A DNA stretch of 64,000 bases from Candidatus Omnitrophota bacterium (GTDB taxonomy: Bacteria; Omnitrophota; Gorgyraeia; Gygaellales; Profunditerraquicolaceae), in assembly GCA_043814315.1 (NCBI GenBank), contig JBDRKE010000010.1, positions 66,896 through 130,895 on the forward strand, given 5' to 3'. How positions within the stretch are numbered: the first letter of the stretch is position 1; the number at the start of each line of letters is the position of its first letter. A program made the translations under genes and the position numbers. The notes beneath the pieces are model-generated. The model ran no database searches and had not been told where the DNA came from. It saw nothing but the letters and a program-made list of their open reading frames with translations. This document shows, in pieces, positions 1,638-59,762 of this stretch.

Positions 1638-2927
1638 ATGGCGAAGAAATTATGGGGAGGTAGATTCAGTAAAAAGGCTCATCCCCTGACGGAAGAGTTT
1701 ACAAAATCCATTTCGTTTGATTACAAACTGTTACATTATGATATTGCAGGGTCTCTGGCGCACGTAGGTATCCTGAAAAGCGCGGGAATCATTTCAGCTG
1801 TGGAGGCTGCAAAGATTTCCCAGGGGCTTAAGTCCATCAAGTTCGACTCTAGGCTTGCGGATTATCAAGAGGATGTCCATACTTTCATTCAGAACCAATT
1901 GCATAGGAGAATCGGGAAACTGGCGTTGAAATTACACACAGCACGCTCAAGAAATGATCAGGTCGTCTTTTCCACGAAAATGTATTGCAAGGATAACCTT
2001 AAAAAGCTAATACAGGAGATCGATGGTTTTAGCAGCGCTTTAGGAACTCAGGTGAAGAAGCAAGCTCAGCTTATTCTCCCCGGGTTTACCCATTTGCAGC
2101 ATGCTCAGCCGGTTTACCTGAAGGACTATCTGAATGCTTACGCGTTGATGCTTAACCGGGACAAAAAAAGACTGGAGCTCATCCAAAAGAATGAGAAAGC
2201 GACATTAGGAGCCGGTGCCCTTGCCGGTACACCTATTGCCGCTTTAAAATACGCTAAGTTCGCTACGGCCAATTCATTGGATGCCGTAAGCAATAGAGAT
2301 TTTGTCTTGGAAATCATCAGCGCCTTGTCTATCCTAGCCATGCATTTATCAAGGTTGGCTGAAGATTTGATTATTTGGTCCACCAAGGAATTTGACTTCG
2401 TGGAGATTGACGAGGCTTTTTGCACAGGCAGTTCTCTGATGCCACAGAAGAAAAATCCTGATGTGCTGGAGTTGGTGAGAGGCTATGCAGGAAGGCTTTA
2501 TGGTAATCTGGTAAGTGTTCTAACGATGATGAAGGGGTTACCGCTGACTTATAACAGAGATATGCAATTGGATAAGGAACCTTTGTTTGATTCATTTGAA
2601 ATCGTTTCCAGGGAATTAAAAGTATTAACCGGGCTCATCGAGACGCTTAAATTCAATGAGAAGAAAATAAAAGAACACTTAAAGGATGAGTCTTTATATG
2701 CCACTGATTTAGTGTATTATCTTGTCGATAGAAAGATTCCCTTTAAAGAGGCGCATACGGCTATCGGCAAATTAGTGAAATATTCTCTGGATCATGGAAT
2801 CCAGATCAAAGACATGCCGGAAAGTTTATTGAACAAGTTTTCGAATAAAATTGTTAAAAAAGAAATAATAAAATTATTCGATCCGTTAGTTTCTGTCAGG
2901 TCGAAAAAGTCAATTAAGAGGAAATAA
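1638..2927 (+). CDS. argH: argininosuccinate lyase
   Basis: 429 aa. N-terminus LWGGRF, the lyase-family signature GSSLMPQKKNPD, and adjacency to argG. Confidence 0.93.
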   Translation: MAKKLWGGRFSKKAHPLTEEFTKSISFDYKLLHYDIAGSLAHVGILKSAGIISAVEAAKISQGLKSIKFDSRLADYQEDVHTFIQNQLHRRIGKLALKLHTARSRNDQVVFSTKMYCKDNLKKLIQEIDGFSSALGTQVKKQAQLILPGFTHLQHAQPVYLKDYLNAYALMLNRDKKRLELIQKNEKATLGAGALAGTPIAALKYAKFATANSLDAVSNRDFVLEIISALSILAMHLSRLAEDLIIWSTKEFDFVEIDEAFCTGSSLMPQKKNPDVLELVRGYAGRLYGNLVSVLTMMKGLPLTYNRDMQLDKEPLFDSFEIVSRELKVLTGLIETLKFNEKKIKEHLKDESLYATDLVYYLVDRKIPFKEAHTAIGKLVKYSLDHGIQIKDMPESLLNKFSNKIVKKEIIKLFDPLVSVRSKKSIKRK

Positions 2928-2959
2928 GTAGCGGGTGGCTTGGACTGATGAGTATAAAA

Positions 2960-3192
2960 ATGCACCTGGCGAGGTGCGAGCGAATGGAGCTTTTAGCAAG
3001 AGGAGCTTGAGCATTTGAGGGAATCTCGAGGTCAACGCGAAGCGTTGGCAATCTCGGGACGGCTGTGGGTGTCTGAGCGACGAGCGAGAGCGCGAGGAGC
3101 GAGTTCCGCAGACGCCGAAAATGCGAAAGAACTCTTGCGTCCTGAGCGAAGCGAAGGAAAAGCGACCTGAGCGAGCAGCTTGGCAGGTGCAT
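2960..3192. repeat. 233-bp GC/purine-rich intergenic element bounded by a short inverted repeat
   Basis: Left end atgcacctg (2960..2968) is the reverse complement of right end caggtgcat (3184..3192). The interior is full of gagcgaagcgaagg / gagcgacgagcgag motifs related to the cores at 15996..16024 and 18648..18690. Confidence 0.6.
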
Positions 3193-3221
3193 GTAACCGT
3201 CAAATAGTTTGGTAAGATTCC

Positions 3222-4499
3222 ATGCACGACTTTAAATATAAAAACAATCAGCTTTATTGCGAACAGGTTAAAGTCGAGGATTTAGCCAGGAAATTCGGCA
3301 CGCCTCTTTACGTCTACAGTTACCGTACTTTGATAGACCATTTCCTTAAACTGCAACATGCTTTTAAGAGCATAAATCCCCTGATCTGTTTCTCCGCAAA
3401 ATCCAATTCCAATCTGGCTATCCTGAAAGCCCTGGTGGATAAGGGGGCGGGCCTGGATATCGTTTCGGGGGGTGAGCTTTACAGGGCGCTTCGCGTGGGT
3501 TGCCCGCCCGAAAGAATCGTCTATGCTTCCGTCGGGAAAACCGAGCGCGAGATAGAAGAGGCTATCCGCCGAAGGATCCTTTTCTTTAATGTAGAAAGCA
3601 CAGCGGAATTGGAAAATATCAACCGTATAGCCAGAAGACTCAAACGGATTACGCGCCTGGCCATACGCATCAACCCGGATGTTGAGCCAAAAACCCACAG
3701 GTATATTACCACGGGAAAATTGACCAATAAATTCGGCATAGATTTCAGAAGCGCCTATCAGATTTTAATGGTGCGCCAAGCCCTCTCGCATGTGAAAATA
3801 TCCGGTTTGCATATCCACATCGGCTCTCAGATAACAGAAAGTGCTCCTTATGTTGCCGCTATGACCAAAATGGCAGCGTTTATTGAAAAACTGAGGAAGA
3901 AAGGAATAGGCCTTGAGTATCTTAATATCGGGGGCGGCCTGGGTATTGTCTATAATCACGAAACTCCGCAAACAGCCGTCCACTTTGCCGGTAAGGTCTT
4001 GCCTTTGCTTAAAAGGACAGGTTTAAAGATTATCTTAGAGCCAGGCAGATTCATTGTCGGCAATGCCGGTATCCTGGTTACAAAAGTGTTGTATCTTAAA
4101 TCGAGCCCTAGAAAGAAATTTGTCATTGTCGATGCGGGAATGAATGACTTGATCCGGCCTGCTTTGTATAACGCCTATCATCAGATTCTGCCCTTACGCA
4201 ATACGCAATACGCAATACGCAATACGCAGAAAGTCGATATAGTGGGCCCGATATGCGAAAGTGGCGATTTCTTTGCCAAAGAAAGGCCATTGCCTCAAGT
4301 CAAAGAAGGCCAGTATCTGGCAGTCATGAGTGCGGGCGCTTACGGTTTTAGCATGGCCTCTAATTATAATTCGCGAAAGAGGCCGCAGGAAATCATGGTC
4401 TTAAAGAATAAGTCCTTTGTCATAAGAAAAAGAGAGAACGAAAAAGATTTGGTTTGTAACGAAGTCATCCCGTCTTTTCTGTTTAAGGATACAGTATGA
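3222..4499 (+). CDS. lysA: diaminopimelate decarboxylase
   Basis: 425 aa. Conserved blocks GTPLYVY, FSAKSNSN and GPICESGD, within a lysine-operon context. Confidence 0.9.
   Translation: MHDFKYKNNQLYCEQVKVEDLARKFGTPLYVYSYRTLIDHFLKLQHAFKSINPLICFSAKSNSNLAILKALVDKGAGLDIVSGGELYRALRVGCPPERIVYASVGKTEREIEEAIRRRILFFNVESTAELENINRIARRLKRITRLAIRINPDVEPKTHRYITTGKLTNKFGIDFRSAYQILMVRQALSHVKISGLHIHIGSQITESAPYVAAMTKMAAFIEKLRKKGIGLEYLNIGGGLGIVYNHETPQTAVHFAGKVLPLLKRTGLKIILEPGRFIVGNAGILVTKVLYLKSSPRKKFVIVDAGMNDLIRPALYNAYHQILPLRNTQYAIRNTQKVDIVGPICESGDFFAKERPLPQVKEGQYLAVMSAGAYGFSMASNYNSRKRPQEIMVLKNKSFVIRKRENEKDLVCNEVIPSFLFKDTV
4196..4228 (+). repeat. heptanucleotide tandem repeat (acgcaat, about 4.7 copies) inside lysA
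   Basis: Read directly: acgcaat x4 followed by acgca. It is translated in frame as RNTQYAIRNTQ, just upstream of the conserved VDIVGPICESGD block. Confidence 0.9.
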
Positions 4500-6206: not shown

Positions 6207-6364
6207 GCGTAAAACGCAAAGCGAAAAGCGTAAAACTAAAGCGGAAAACTTCCCGTTCGGCTATTAAATTTATTGCGGGATCCCGCTTTTCAGAAAATAG
6301 CTTAGCGGGAAAAACGTTTTGAGCTTACAACTTTAACTTTACGCTTTGCGCTTTGAGTTTTACG
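6207..6364. repeat. modular hairpin element (cgtaaaac/gcaaag arms, gcgggatcccgc core)
   Basis: The left arm gcgtaaaacgcaaagcgaaaagcgtaaaactaaagcg is roughly the reverse complement of the right arm ...ctttaactttacgctttgcgctttgagttttacg. The core holds the 12-nt palindrome gcgggatcccgc (6285..6296) and gcgggaaaaa. Confidence 0.8.
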
Positions 6365-6383: not shown

Positions 6384-7094
6384 ATGATTAAGCTAGGTGT
6401 AGCCGGTGTTTGCGGAAGAATGGGGAGGCGTATATTTGAGTTGGCCTCTGTGGATAGGGATTTTGAGTTGACCCTTGCCCTTGAGAAAAAAGGTACGCCC
6501 ATGATTGGCCGGGATATGGGTAAGCTTAAGATATCCTCCAGTCCCGACGGCCTATTCCTTATTGATTGTTTTATAGATTTTACTACTCCCGAGGCAAGCG
6601 AGATTCATCTAGGGTATGTGGCAAAATACAAGAAACCCGTTGTCCTGGGCACAACCGGATTAAACGAAGCTCAATTAAAAGAAATAGAAGAGGTATCTAA
6701 AGTTGTCCCCGTGGTATTCTCACCGAATATGGCTGTCGGTGTAAACGTTTTGTTTGCCCTTTTGCCTGAAATAGCTAAGAGATTAGGTTTGGATTACAGC
6801 GTGGAGATCATAGAGGCCCACCATAAGGCGAAAAAAGACGCTCCTTCAGGAACGGCCAAGAAGCTGGGGCAGATTTTAGCGGATACCGCTAAAAAAGAAA
6901 TTCCTATCCATGCCATCCGGCTGGGGGATATTATCGGTGACCATACGGTCATATTCTGCGGTAACTCTGAGCGCATCGAAATAAAACATCAGGCGCACTC
7001 ACGCGATTTGTTCGCCCTGGGTGCTTTAAAGGCAGCGAAATGGATTGTTGGTAAACCTGCCGGTTTGTATTCGATGCAGGATGTGTTAAGATAG
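6384..7094 (+). CDS. dapB: 4-hydroxy-tetrahydrodipicolinate reductase
   Basis: N-terminus MIKLGVAGVCGRMG (Rossmann fold), EAHHKAKKDAPSGTA and HQAHSRDLFALGAL. The ATG at 6384 is preferred over the GTG at 6375 because of the upstream gcgagg Shine-Dalgarno (SD) sequence. Confidence 0.85.
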   Translation: MIKLGVAGVCGRMGRRIFELASVDRDFELTLALEKKGTPMIGRDMGKLKISSSPDGLFLIDCFIDFTTPEASEIHLGYVAKYKKPVVLGTTGLNEAQLKEIEEVSKVVPVVFSPNMAVGVNVLFALLPEIAKRLGLDYSVEIIEAHHKAKKDAPSGTAKKLGQILADTAKKEIPIHAIRLGDIIGDHTVIFCGNSERIEIKHQAHSRDLFALGALKAAKWIVGKPAGLYSMQDVLR

Positions 7095-7165
7095 CGTAAA
7101 GTGCAAAGTGAAAAACGCAAAACTAAAACGCTTTAAGTTCTAACTTTACGCTTTGAGCTTTACGT
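7095..7165. repeat. coreless hairpin element (cgtaaag/gcaaag-type arms)
   Basis: gcgtaaagtgcaaagtgaaaaacgcaaaactaaaacg is followed directly by the imperfect complement ctttaagttctaactttacgctttgagctttacgt. Confidence 0.75.
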
Positions 7166-7184
7166 ACAACTTATAGGATAGAAT

Positions 7185-8345
7185 ATGTTTGAACTGTCAC
7201 AGAAGATTCAAAGTCTGCCTCCGTATCTTTTCGCGGAAATCGATAAGGCGAAAAGAAAGGCCCGGGCCGAAGGCAGGGACATCATTGACTTAGGCGTGGG
7301 GGATCCTGATACGCCGACGCCAAAACACATTATTCAGGCTTTGTGTCAGGCCGCACAGGATCCTGTTTGTCACCGATATGCTTTGGACCAGGGGATGCCG
7401 GCTTTACGACAAGCTATTCAGCGTTGGTACAAAAAAAGATTCAACGTGGATCTTAATCCTGATACAGAAATCCTGCCATTGATTGGTTCCAAGGAGGGGC
7501 TGGCTCACTTTCCGTTGGCATTCCTGAATAAAGGGGATTATTCTTTGGTACCTGATCCCTGTTATCCTCCTTATAAAGGCGGAACGATTCTTGCCGGAGG
7601 CAGGCCCTTTTCTTTACCGCTTCTTGAGCAGAATTCGTTTTTACCGGACCTGAAAAATATACCCTCTTCTATCCGAAAAAAAGCCAAGCTCATATATATC
7701 AATTATCCTAATAACCCTACTTCTGCGACCGCAGAAAAGGATTTTTTTAGCGCAACTGTAGCATTTGCTCTCAAAAATAAAATAGGGATTTTATCAGACT
7801 TAGCCTATTCGGAGATGGCTTATGACGGCTATAGGCCCTCTAGCGCCCTGGAGGTCGAAGGGGCCAAGGAAGCCGTTGTAGAATTTCATTCCCTGTCCAA
7901 GACTTTTAACATGACCGGTTGGCGTATCGGCTGGGCGTGCGGTAATGAAAAAGCGATAGCTGCCCTGGCCAAGGTCAAATCCAACATGGATTCAGGGATA
8001 TTTTCTGCGATTCAATTAGCCGGCGTGGCTGCCCTGGAAGGGCCCCAGGCGCATATCAAGGATATGTGTCAGTTGTATCAGCAGCGCAGGGATATTCTCA
8101 TAAAAAGTTTACATTCCCTGGGTTGGCCGGCAGATTCTCCCAAGGCCACTTTTTACGTCTGGATGAAAGTTCCGCGTAAGACCGATTCCATAACATTTGC
8201 TCAAGTCCTGCTGAAAAAGGCCGATATTGTTGTCACCCCCGGTGTAGGATTCGGCAGATACGGAGGCGGTTTTATCCGCATGGCCCTGACCGTGCCTGAA
8301 GAGAGGATAGAAGAAGCCATACGGCGCTTAAAAAAAATTCTATGA
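7185..8345 (+). CDS. dapL: LL-diaminopimelate aminotransferase (class I aminotransferase)
   Basis: 386 aa. N-terminus LPPYLFAEID...DLGVGDPD, the PLP-Lys context SLSKTFNMTGWRIGW, and position directly after dapA/dapB/dapF/lysA. No dapD/dapC/dapE genes are in the window. Confidence 0.7.
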   Translation: MFELSQKIQSLPPYLFAEIDKAKRKARAEGRDIIDLGVGDPDTPTPKHIIQALCQAAQDPVCHRYALDQGMPALRQAIQRWYKKRFNVDLNPDTEILPLIGSKEGLAHFPLAFLNKGDYSLVPDPCYPPYKGGTILAGGRPFSLPLLEQNSFLPDLKNIPSSIRKKAKLIYINYPNNPTSATAEKDFFSATVAFALKNKIGILSDLAYSEMAYDGYRPSSALEVEGAKEAVVEFHSLSKTFNMTGWRIGWACGNEKAIAALAKVKSNMDSGIFSAIQLAGVAALEGPQAHIKDMCQLYQQRRDILIKSLHSLGWPADSPKATFYVWMKVPRKTDSITFAQVLLKKADIVVTPGVGFGRYGGGFIRMALTVPEERIEEAIRRLKKIL

Positions 8346-10486: not shown

Positions 10487-10610
10487 AGGTTTCATAAGGT
10501 TGCCTAAGGTTACATAATGTTCCATAAAGTTACGCCTTTGGTAACCTTACGTAACATTATGCCTGCCTGCCGGCAGGCAGGGAACCTCATGGTACCTTAT
10601 GTAACTTTAA
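10487..10610. repeat. modular hairpin element (cataaggtt-type arms, cctgcctgccggcaggcagg core)
   Basis: The left half is made of 9-10-nt units (tcataaggtt, cctaaggtt, acataatgtt, ccataaagtt). The right half holds their complements (aaccttacgt, aacattatg, aacctcatggt, accttatgt). A perfect 20-nt palindrome lies at 10562..10581. Confidence 0.8.
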
Positions 10611-10647
10611 TAATAAAATTAATAAATGAGAGGAGGTGAATTCGAAT

Positions 10648-10890
10648 ATGGCAGAAAAAGTAGTGAAGTTGGGCATCAAAAGGGAGAAAGGTTATCTCTA
10701 TTACATCGACAAAAAAGGAGATGTTTCTTGCGCCAAGATGGCTAGAGGCAAGAAAAAAGGCGGTAACCCGAAAAAAGTCGCAAAATGCGGCATCAAGAGA
10801 AAAGAGGGATACCTTTATTTTCTTGATAAAAAAGGGGATGTCTCCTGCGCCAAGATGAAAAGAGGCGGAAAAAAGAAGAAAAAAAGATAG
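10648..10890 (+). CDS. small, very basic protein made of two tandem ~38-aa repeats
   Basis: A strong SD (aggagg) lies upstream of the ATG at 10648. Repeat 1 is VKLGIKREKGYLYYIDKKGDVSCAKMARGKKKGG and repeat 2 is VAKCGIKRKEGYLYFLDKKGDVSCAKMKRGGKKKKKR. A clear terminator follows. Confidence 0.7.
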   Translation: MAEKVVKLGIKREKGYLYYIDKKGDVSCAKMARGKKKGGNPKKVAKCGIKRKEGYLYFLDKKGDVSCAKMKRGGKKKKKR

Positions 10891-10906
10891 TAAGAGAGAA
10901 AAAAGA

Positions 10907-10974
10907 GGGGGGGTCAGATCTATTCTTCTGACTCCGTTTCTAAAAAGAAAATAGATCTCACCCCCTTTTTTTTT
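10907..10974 (+). terminator. rho-independent terminator
   Basis: gggggtcagatctatt pairs with aatagatctcaccccc (one mismatch), followed by a run of nine T. Confidence 0.8.
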
Positions 10975-31862: not shown

Positions 31863-32111
31863 TTTTTTTACAAAGCCCCTCTTGGCATCCGCAAGAATTT
31901 ATTTGCCCGCCTGCAGAAACTATGGTAAATTAATATGACGAAAGGGAAATATTCTTGATGAGAAAGAATTTTTTAGTCCTGCGCCCTAGATAAAAGATTA
32001 GGGTGGGCTTAGGACAAAATTTTTCGAATAAAAAAATTTCAGTACTTCCCCCTTAAATAAAAGCTTAAGGTAGGGGAAGTACAAAAAATTCTTGCTCAGC
32101 AAGAATTTTTT

Positions 32112-32187
32112 GGGGCAGTAGCTCAGCTGGGAGAGCGTCGCGTTCGCATCGCGAAGGTCGGGAGTTCGATCCTCCTCTGCTCCACCA
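32112..32187 (+). tRNA. tRNA-Ala (anticodon CGC), CCA encoded
   Basis: The cloverleaf was folded by hand. Acceptor stem ggggcag/ctgctcc includes the G3:U70 Ala identity pair. The anticodon loop ttCGCat and T-loop ttcgatc are present, with discriminator A followed by CCA. Confidence 0.93.
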
Positions 32188-35098: not shown

Positions 35099-35243
35099 TA
35101 AATTCAAATGTCAAAATCCAAAAAGAATCCCTGCCTTGCCGGCAGGCAGGCAAGGCAGGGAGGCAAATGTTAAAACAGAAGATTCATCGTTTTGAATTTT
35201 GTGCTTTGTGCTTATTTTGAATTTTGAGCTTTGTCATTTGAAT
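35099..35243. repeat. modular hairpin element (aattcaaatgtcaaaatccaaaa arm, ccctgccttgcc-ggcaggca-ggcaaggcaggg core)
   Basis: A 12-bp palindromic stem core lies at 35129..35160. The right arm ttttgaattttgtgctttgtgcttattttgaattttgagctttgtcatttgaat complements the left arm. Confidence 0.8.
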
Positions 35244-54596: not shown

Positions 54597-54708
54597 GGTT
54601 AAATCCCTATTTAAAAATCCCAAACAAAACATTTGGATTTGGGATTTGTTTGGTAGTATTGGGATTTTGGATTTGTTTGGGATTTGGGATTTGGAAATTG
54701 GGATTTTC
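54597..54708. repeat. modular hairpin element (aaatccc.. / tttgggattt.. arms)
   Basis: Short A/C arm at 54601..54630 and a longer G/T arm at 54631..54708 that contains gggatttgtttggtagtattgggatt (54641..54666). Confidence 0.8.
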
Positions 54709-58022: not shown

Positions 58023-59564
58023 ATGAATGAAACAAAATCAGAACTGGAAGAGCTGTATAATCAGAGTATCAGGCTTATCAAAGAAGGGCAGGTGATAACG
58101 GGCAAGATCGTTACGATAAAGACCAAAGAGGTACTGGTGGATGTAGGATTTAAATCAGAGGGGATCGTCCCGATTGCGGAATTCAGTTCACAGGATCTGG
58201 AAGCCGGCAAGGAACTTGAGTTTTTTGTCGAATCCATAGAGAATGATGCGGGTAACATCGAGCTGTCGCGCGAAAAAGCCATACGCATCCAGGGATGGGA
58301 CAGGATCGTCAAGTTTTCTCAGACCGGCGAGTTGGTGGAAGGCAGGCCTATTAAAAAGGTCAAAGGGGGATTTCTAGTTGATGTGATGGGTATCGAGGGG
58401 TTTCTCCCTTCCTCGCTTTCGGCTTTCAAGGGTGTGGCCGAAAGAGAAATCATGTACAAGCCTTTTAAGTTCAAGATCGTCAAGATAAACAACTTAAGAA
58501 GAAGCATCATTGTCAGCCGCAGGGAGGCGGTGCAGAAAGCAAAAGAGGAGGTCAAGGATAAGATTTGGCAGGACTTGAAGATCGGTAATATTTATCCCGG
58601 CACGGTCAAGGCCATAACGGATTTTGGTGCCTTTGTGGACTTGGGAGGAGTGGATGGCCTCTTGCATATCACGGATATGTCCTGGTCTAAGATCAGCCAT
58701 CCTTCGGAAATTGTGGCCTTGGGAGACAAGATCGAAGTCATGGTGTTGAATTTTGACAAGGAATCGGGAAAGATATCGCTCGGCTTAAAGCAGAGGCTCC
58801 CTGACCCCTGGCAGGATATAGAGAAGAAATTTATCGTCGGTTCCAAAATCAAAGGCAAGGTCGTCAATATCCTTCCTTAAGGAGTATTTGTGGAACTAGA
58901 GAAGGGTATCGAGGGGCTCATCCATGTTTCTGAAATCTCTTGGACAAAAAGGATCAATAATCCGAATGAGATGTTTGCTATCGCAGATATGGTGGAAACT
59001 CAGATCCTTAACGTAGATAAGGATTCCCGCAGGATATCCTTGAGCCTGAAACAGCTCGAGCAGAATCCGTGGCTGGAAGCCGAATCTAAATACCCTGCCG
59101 GAACCAAAATCACGGGAAAAGTGAGAGGATTCACAGATTACGGAGCCTTTGTTGAGTTGGATAGTAACCTGGAAGGGATGATCCATGTATCGGATATCTC
59201 CTGGACAAAAAGGATAGCGCATCCTCAGGATGTTCTTAAGAAAGGTCAGAAGATTGAGGCCATAGTACTCTCTGTGGACAGCCAGAATCGCCGTATCGTG
59301 TTAGGCTTAAAGCAGCTGCAGTCAAACCCCTGGCCCGAGATCGCTGCCAAATATCCTTTAGATACCGTCTTGGAAGCAGAGACTGTCAGTATCACAGAGT
59401 TCGGCGTATTTGTTAAGATAGAAGAGGAACTCGAAGGTTTGGTGTATGCCAGCGAGATAGACAGGGAGACCGTTTCACAATTGAAACCCGGGGATAAGTT
59501 TAAGGTAAAAATAATCAAGGTGGATGTGGAGCAGAACAAGATTGGACTGTCGGCAAAGATATAA
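58023..59564 (+). pseudogene. rpsA: 30S ribosomal protein S1, contiguous frame interrupted by one in-frame TAA (58878..58880)
   Basis: ORFs 58023..58880 and 58890..59564 are in the same frame. Across the junction the translation reads [29 protein letters not shown], where the other S1 repeats of this protein have F/Y-G-A/V-F-V. The label pseudogene is provisional; a sequencing error or a split gene is equally possible. Confidence 0.85.
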
Positions 59565-59567
59565 TGT

Positions 59568-59734
59568 TAAATCCAAAATCCAAATATTACCAAATCCAAA
59601 ATAAATCCCAATCTCTCCCGCATAAGCGGGATCCCGCTAGACGTTACAAGTTGCGCGGGAAAAATCCCAAATAGTTTTGGATTTTGGATTTGGGATTTGT
59701 TTGGTAGTATCGGTATTAGTGGGATTTGGGGTTT
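59568..59734. repeat. modular hairpin element (aaatccaaaa / ttttggattt arms, gcgggatcccgc core)
   Basis: Left arm aaatccaaaatccaaatattaccaaatccaaaataaatccc. The core is cccgcataagcgggatcccgc...gcgcgggaaaaa, with the palindrome at 59626..59637. The right arm is agttttggattttggatttgggatttgtttggtagtatcggtatt. Confidence 0.85.
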
Positions 59735-59762
59735 ATCGGGTCATTTAAGGAAGAGGTTAATT

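Follow-up and report, generated by a model that had tools for sequence, protein, structure and literature searches.

The dapA-dapB and rpsA-tyrS spacers of a Candidatus Omnitrophota MAG carry two long hairpins with unrelated arms and a common core, and we consider that this core probably is a non-autonomous palindromic insertion element resembling the Rickettsia palindromic elements (RPE) and the REP elements. Orthologs with exact empty sites show the core to be a discrete unit. Copies are scattered through many Omnitrophota as well as some further uncultivated phyla, and they occupy spacers, tRNA gene fragments and, in-frame, protein genes. The comparison of empty with filled sites suggests that the core is mobile. 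Below, the window means the whole stretch of DNA that was analysed (64,000 nt), and loci of other genomes are given as L numbers.

Two copies of the core in the window

We looked for the palindromic 12-mer GCGGGATCCCGC in the 64-kb window and found exactly two matches, at 6275-6286 and 59626-59637, against a chance expectation of 0.21 per window even with one mismatch permitted. Each match is preceded by CCCG (at 6252 and 59617) and followed by GCGGGAAAAA (at 6305-6314 and 59655-59664). The composite CCCG-N(2-25)-GCGGGATCCCGC-N(10-25)-GCGGGAAA was likewise matched twice in the window, versus 0.00 times in 100 dinucleotide-preserving shuffles. The motif search, the shuffles and the comparison of the arms confirm the preliminary description of two elements with unrelated arms and a common core, both with a cccg...gcggg pairing and a downstream gcgggaaaaa. 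Of the two positions given there for the 12-mer, 59626-59637 was correct and 6285-6296 was ten too high.

The core was found to consist of two hairpin units that abut and share one stem sequence, so that TCCCGC...GCGGGA is read twice and the 12-mer palindrome is the junction between the units (Table 1). The copy between dapA and dapB (E1) has two loops of about 18-19 nt and matches the 66-member symmetric class of the family alignment described below, and the copy between the S1 gene (rpsA) and tyrS (E2) has loops of 4 and 17 nt; the identities of these flanking genes were assigned by Pfam. When the core was folded alone, E1 was predicted to form one nested hairpin and E2 two side-by-side hairpins, indicating that the copies share sequence motifs and not one structure. 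For the surrounding hairpins, the RNA minimum free energy was -66.8 kcal/mol each, with z-scores of -6.1 (E1) and -5.9 (E2).

Table 1. Positions in the window of the two core copies, their units, the foldback arms around them and the core-less hairpins of the same arm families.
Feature	Position	Strand	Description
Left arm, dapA-dapB foldback hairpin	6208..6250	+	CGTAAAAC/GCAAAG tandem words; host element of E1, outside the core
Core copy E1	6251..6310	.	Symmetric class, 60 nt; nhmmer family profile E = 6e-13
E1 unit 1	6251-6280		TCCCGT-N18-TGCGGGA
E1 unit 2	6281-6310		TCCCGC-N18-GCGGGA
Right arm, dapA-dapB foldback hairpin	6322..6364	+	From fold and inverted repeat
Core-less foldback hairpin	7093..7152	+	Same arm family as the E1 host; resembles the E1 left arm
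Core-less foldback hairpin	54601..54706	+	Same arm family as the E2 host
Left arm, rpsA-tyrS foldback hairpin	59569..59615	+	AAATCCAAA...TA(C/T)TACCAAA family
Core copy E2	59616..59660	+	Asymmetric class, 45 nt; nhmmer E = 1e-8
E2 short unit	59616-59631		TCCCGC-ATAA-GCGGGA
E2 long unit	59632-59660		TCCCGC-N17-GCGGGA
Right arm, rpsA-tyrS foldback hairpin	59661..59735	+	From fold, inverted repeat and alignment

A search of the window with the family profile found no degenerate copies beyond E1 and E2, and the density is thus 2 per 64 kb. Since E1 and E2 have no loop sequence in common, nothing points to recent transposition in this genome. Upstream of E2, the S1 gene of the window is split into two ORFs, 58023-58880 and 58890-59564 (285 and 224 aa); it is a single gene of 513 aa in the relatives L207 and L208. 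The gene may be truly interrupted, or the split may be an artefact of assembly.

Arms and core of the intergenic hairpins

The arms of the two hairpins are unrelated in sequence, being of the CGTAAAAC/GCAAAG type around E1, where the inverted repeat (I1) has 43-nt arms that are 81% complementary, and of the AAATCCAAA type around E2. Homologues of the 59569-59615 arm were detected in the window itself at 54601-54706, at the same locus of a sister lineage (L207), and in the dapA-dapB spacers of two relatives (L121 and L146), which are filled by core-less arms of the AAATCCAAA family. In L207, whose TyrS is 86% identical, the rpsA-tyrS spacer contains AAATCCAAA...TACTAC(C/A)AAA arms and the core is absent. 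When the window was aligned with L207, L121 and L146, positions 59616-59660 appeared as a clean 45-nt gap between ...AAT(C/T)TC and AAAATCC.... No target-site duplication was seen in these rpsA-tyrS arms, AATTTC|AAAATCC becoming AATCTC[45 nt]AAAATCC. Because L207 keeps the arms with an exact empty site for the 45 nt, arms and core are independent modules. Other orthologous rpsA-tyrS spacers are empty in L208 (TyrS 85% identical, 30 nt) and L210 (77%, 17 nt), and contain unrelated arms in L209 (79%). Members of the AAATCCAAA arm family in L189 and L207 have a different GC palindrome instead of the core; in L207 a different palindrome, CCTGTCTGCCGACAGGCAGG, lies elsewhere in the arm. Conversely, copies of the core that lack arms altogether were found in protein genes and tRNA gene fragments. 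The modular origin put forward in the preliminary description is therefore supported by the empty site of L207, by arms of both families without core and by core without arms.

We then compared 71 orthologous dapA-dapB spacers (DapB 76-89% identical). About half were empty (21 nt or less), and the remaining ones contained foldback hairpins of many unrelated tandem-word arm families; this core was found in none of the 71. With about half of the spacers empty and the others occupied by many arm families, these spacers must have been repeatedly colonised by foldback elements. In two such foldback hairpins, the core is nested as an additional element. This means that the intergenic hairpins of the window are nested composites of a foldback and a mini-element, and not single evolved regulatory structures.

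The foldback arms themselves are made of tandem words of 6-9 nt, and fill whole spacers from the stop codon to the ribosome-binding site (7093-7152 and 54601-54706 in the window, and the dapA-dapB spacers of L121-L200). In one dapA-dapB spacer (L131, about 860-1322), an arm pair of CGTAA(C/T)T words surrounds a 124-aa ORF of PF05635 (E = 2.9e-35), which is the 23S rRNA intervening-sequence protein family. This ORF suggests that the foldback arms, as distinct from the core, are related to rRNA intervening sequences. Like the latter, the arms form long extended stems inserted at a precise point and show presence/absence polymorphism, some with a PF05635 ORF at the tip as in L131, but they lie in mRNA spacers between stop codon and ribosome-binding site and not in rRNA helices.

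Further repeats were noticed. A second short GC palindrome, CCTGCCTGCCGGCAGGCAGG, forms another module in or beside foldback arms. It is present in the window at 10562-10581 and 35128-35161, and also at L189, L191, L207, L031, L194, L114 and L177, with 16 copies in 1.23 Mb of sequence when up to 3 mismatches were allowed. Four of these 16 lie within 2.4 kb of one Giovannonibacteria contig, each after GCCGCCAAA or a close variant. The window also encodes a lysine-rich ORF of 84 aa (10636-10890), which has an internal duplication (KREKGYLY.DKKGDVSCAKM, twice) and no Pfam match, and which is flanked by a foldback hairpin and a terminator-like hairpin (10900-10974). A GC-richer 35-nt arm pair at 2960-3192 forms a long inverted repeat of a different style (spacer 2927-3222), and a 28-nt arm pair with 89% complementarity (31947-32110) is located immediately 5' of the tRNA at 32112-32184.

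Copies in spacers, tRNA fragments and protein genes

The family was defined by a scan of one genome per species with the pattern GCGGGATCCCGC-N(10-25)-GCGGGAAAA, which gave at least 120 loci. Taxon labels are those of the record titles. Among the matches listed, 68 loci belong to Omnitrophota/Omnitrophica, including two sites in the complete Velamenicoccus archaeovorus genome, 18 to 'Planctomycetales/-ia' MAGs, 11 to Patescibacteria (as variants), 7 to 'Gammaproteobacteria' MAGs, 3 to Margulisiibacteriota/Saganbacteria, 2 to Kryptoniota, and 11 to other taxa, several of these last being GC-rich chance matches. In at least one 'Planctomycetia' MAG (L097), the encoded XseA is Omnitrophota-like. 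The pattern demanded only one of the two outer arms of the core; among the matches listed, 120 of 131 12-mer sites carry both at the right distance. The 12-mer thus occurs far above chance and with conserved flanks, which is the opposite of what the preliminary description had named as its refutation.

Elements of the family measure 45-70 nt and fall into two classes among the matches listed. The symmetric class (66 copies, E1-like) reads TTTTCCCGCC-N~19-GGCGGGATCCCGCC-N~19-GGCGGGAAAA, and the asymmetric class (49 copies, E2-like) has a first loop of 3-6 nt. The Patescibacteria variant has TCACCGCC as first half-stem. A lineage variant of Moraniibacteriota (L064, 1697-1753 and 7359-7476) has GCGGGGTCCCGC or GCGGGACCCCGC in its centre instead of GCGGGATCCCGC, indicating that the central GATC is not strictly required. 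A scan of a viral contig collection gave 0 matches to the core. Rfam detected only a tRNA (32112-32184) over the whole window at the gathering threshold, and nothing credible over E1 and E2 at E <= 10. No description of the core element was found in the searchable literature, including a preprint on complete Omnitrophota genomes.

Several copies interrupt tRNA sequences, in the T-loop (TTC|AAAT), in the anticodon loop of tRNA-Glu (TTTT|CAA) or in the D-loop (T|A). The tRNA sequences interrupted at L102, L074, L033 and L071 are fragments or pseudogenes, and each has next to it an intact tRNA of the same identity that is not interrupted. Since intact tRNA genes adjoin in all cases examined, the element in these fragments is not an intron, and a tRNA intron or intervening sequence was rejected.

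About 20% of the copies, among the matches listed, are located in long ORFs. In-frame copies were identified in xseA, hppA (H+-pyrophosphatase), glyQS (glycyl-tRNA synthetase), glgC, a macro-domain gene and others, where the insert is usually translated as (F)SR...GGIP...AG(K) and appears to be read through. The frame is kept in 14 of the 19 cases with open frames abutting both sides. Frame-shifting insertions, which would have implied removal at the RNA level, were discarded, as the candidates inspected are gene junctions at which the upstream ORF ends inside the element.

At one codon position of XseA, 30 of 120 Omnitrophota orthologs have an insert of 17 codons (51 nt), F-SRQANxGEGGIPQNAG-K, and the other 90 read straight through as ...NEF|KKV.... 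The empty DNA site is GAG TTT|AAA AAA (L205), and the insertion converts TTT|AAA to TTT[51 nt]AAA with no target-site duplication. One insert-less ortholog is 88% identical to a carrier, and a quick neighbour-joining tree requires at least 14 gain or loss events. We compared codons in five XseA carriers, picked by protein similarity and not by DNA match, which are 67-83% identical to each other. Among amino-acid-invariant positions, 9 of 10 motif codons are also invariant in nucleotides versus 32 of 212 elsewhere in xseA (Fisher p = 1e-6), and the long loop of the xseA copies has diverged beyond recognition.

In the alignment of the family as well, four 6-7-mers are invariant and the loops are freely variable. 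The stems never covary but are simply invariant, and covariation beside them favours neither two hairpins nor one long hairpin. When the symmetric class was examined as a single long palindrome, the left and right loops proved only weakly complementary (mean score -1.7 versus -3.7 for mismatched controls). The orientation of the asymmetric class relative to transcription shows no bias (9 same and 10 opposite in spacers, 8 and 11 in genes), which speaks against an RNA signal specific to one strand. The element-bearing loci (886 kb) contained 6 degenerate copies versus 124 exact ones, and the rarity of the former is partly ascertainment bias because the search pattern required an exact core. The small number of decayed copies and the persistence of the motifs in XseA proteins that are 67-83% identical fit a host-maintained signal or continuing homogenisation better than decaying selfish DNA. 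Copies would then be either selected in place or repeatedly renewed and homogenised, and both imply a factor reading the 6-7-mers. A factor recognising the core by its sequence, the alternative to modularity in the preliminary description, may therefore exist beside it.

Nature of the element and rival explanations

On the interpretation that we favour, the mobile element consists of two hairpin units in direct contact, both with TCCCGC(C)/(G)GCGGGA as stem, the first having a loop of about 18 nt (symmetric class) or of 3-6 nt (asymmetric class). It would enter between a T-rich and an A-rich half-site without visible target duplication. The insertion sites seen are TTC|AAAT, TTT|AAA, TTTT|CAA and T|A, and such a target rule, drawn from about ten sites, may apply to the family. 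In the window, two foldback hairpins, unrelated to each other and already present in the dapA-dapB and rpsA-tyrS spacers, would have received it near their tips, and the cores would match and the arms not match because of these two insertions. A putative trans-acting protein (nuclease/transposase or binding protein) would recognise the invariant 6-7-mers and, depending on it, copies would be mobilised or kept homogeneous. Counted against mobility is the low copy density, and the patchy XseA pattern could be explained by repeated precise loss as well as by repeated gain. An autonomous IS with the same ends as the core was not seen in 1.2 Mb of sequence.

The best-known palindromic repeats that insert in-frame into housekeeping genes are those of Rickettsia, and the RPE were reportedly described by Ogata et al. 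in 2000. In a comparison of length, unit structure and context, the RPE and the core are alike in being short palindromic repeats without coding capacity or known transposase, dispersed in spacers and RNA genes, and in being inserted in-frame into conserved protein genes whose ORF stays open. The core differs in its length (45-70 nt versus about 100-150 nt), in its two abutting units with identical GC stems, in the conservation of its motifs across phyla and at synonymous sites, and in its hosts, which are free-living or episymbiotic uncultivated phyla and not an obligate intracellular alpha-proteobacterium. RPEs are mentioned in PMC1779305.

With REP, BIME and REPIN elements, which are mobilised by RAYT (TnpA-REP, Y1 HUH) transposases, the core shares short GC-rich imperfect palindromes, often in doublets able to form a larger hairpin, a location in operon spacers, and conservation by sequence rather than by covariation. 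REP-type elements have no target duplication. Unlike REP, the core has no GTAG-type 5' tetranucleotide; GT[AG]G beside the hairpin is absent from the alignments, where the flanks are 5' T-runs and 3' A-runs. Its units are abutting hairpins and not an inverted pair with complementary spacers. REP are repeated and essentially extragenic; the core is repeated and palindromic, but its density is far lower (2 copies per 64 kb) and some copies are located within ORFs. Among the loci analysed, each of 8 kb or less, a RAYT-like gene was not detected. Palindrome-associated MITEs derived from IS200/IS605 are also small and non-autonomous with terminal inverted 7-mers, and the ends of the core, TCCCGC(C) and (G)GCGGGA, are such inverted repeats. 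The single-strand mode of IS200/IS605 is similar too, with a hairpin at each end, no target duplication and insertion beside a short T-rich target. The target-site duplication of MITEs is not found with the core, and, in contrast to the IS200/IS605-derived ones, the core has almost no internal sequence between its hairpins, and no parent IS or TnpA was found. Elements of the Correia/NEMIS type are marked by duplication of a TA target and by promoter or IHF sites, and the core showed neither feature. Membership of the core in the RPE, REP/REPIN or IS200/IS605-derived families is not established.

A different reading, that the core is a host-maintained cis-acting signal in duplex DNA whose spread by insertion is secondary, seems rather unlikely to us. 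Here, the 14-bp perfect palindrome GGCGGGATCCCGCC, with flanking TCCCGCC/GGCGGGA half-sites, would be bound by a host protein in dimeric or tetrameric form, by analogy with dispersed parS, Noc-binding or matS sites. This would account for a conservation that is strictly palindromic, at the level of sequence and independent of orientation, for motifs invariant at synonymous sites within the housekeeping gene xseA and conserved across phyla, and for the few decayed copies; the density of about 1 per 30 kb is of the order of that of Noc or matS sites. However, the core arrives as an indel of 45-60 nt and not by point mutation, and copies lie within decaying tRNA fragments. It is moreover missing from most orthologous sites and from the 88%-identical ortholog, and so no given site is required. 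A functional RNA module was judged unlikely. In such a module, two GC-clamped hairpins capping AU-rich intercistronic hairpins would regulate dapA/dapB and rpsA/tyrS as a folding nucleus, as a barrier to RNase III or exonucleases, or as a small RNA set free when the arms are processed. Both window copies are located in co-directional operon spacers, in very stable hairpins that begin just past the stop codon and end just short of the ribosome-binding site, G-T wobbles fall on the sense strand in 5 of 6 informative variants, which is not significant, and the related arm pair of L131 encloses an ORF of the family of 23S rRNA intervening-sequence proteins; RNase III excises such intervening sequences in rRNA. 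On the other hand, there is no Rfam match even at E <= 10, no covariation in the stems and no orientation bias, many arm-less copies lie inside ORFs or tRNA fragments, and the sense strand of 33 foldback spacers does not consistently fold better (20 versus 13, p = 0.25). With half of the orthologous spacers empty, the module would be dispensable for the dapA-dapB and rpsA-tyrS operons.

Ordinary intrinsic terminators, similar by convergence or chance, are contradicted and hardly credible. It is true that the cores are GC-rich hairpins in intergenic spacers and that the central GCGGGATCCCGC of E1 is followed by TTTT, but the outer hairpins have T-runs before and A-runs after them on both strands, the reverse of terminator polarity, no hairpin of E2 is followed by a T-run, and copies are found inside ORFs. 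Chance is further opposed by a composite expected 0.00 times and yet present in at least 120 loci of other genomes. As for a recent segmental duplication of one element, it has the common 12-mer in its favour and is refuted, with a probability close to nil, by the unrelated arms, by unrelated loops in different architectures (symmetric and asymmetric), and by the core-less relatives of each arm family. The statement of the preliminary description that simple duplication does not explain the pair is thereby borne out.

If the mobile element is retained, Omnitrophota and candidate-phyla-radiation bacteria would have a second family, apparently unrelated to that of Rickettsia, and in-frame palindromic insertion would then not be peculiar to intracellular parasites. 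The element would also explain why 'FSR...GGIP...AGK' inserts of 15-23 residues recur in the annotated proteins of these phyla, and would give a marker for strain-level insertion polymorphism in metagenomes. The constancy of the motifs at synonymous sites and across phyla points to a putative protein partner.

We searched for such a partner by all-against-all clustering of the ORFs at 120 loci, in which no transposase or candidate enzyme recurred near the copies. The only recurrent gene association was a small GIY-YIG ORF (PF01541) at four loci sharing one context. All four small GIY-YIG ORFs present in 1.2 Mb of sequence are 50-60 nt from a core copy and, in these four Omnitrophota genomes, the core near the GIY-YIG start sits in the anticodon loop or the D-loop of a partial tRNA-Glu. 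At L071 and L102, core-bearing tRNA-Glu fragments are present on both sides of the GIY-YIG gene. With one genomic context for the four loci, these are few independent observations. Conceivably, a dedicated nuclease specific for structure or sequence could recognise the element and so drive its site-specific homing and the homogeneity of the copies, with GIY-YIG as sole lead, but we find this quite improbable. If true, it would be a GIY-YIG counterpart of the RAYT/REP partnership, acting across several uncultivated phyla and writing 15-23 codons into essential genes. At all four loci the GIY-YIG gene is directly upstream of tRNA-Glu and reads into it (L102, 2150-2900; L071, 2150-3050; L050, about 7110-7510; L020, about 7680-8000), and in L071 the GIY-YIG/tRNA-Glu junction is present as a tandem repeat of 115 nt.
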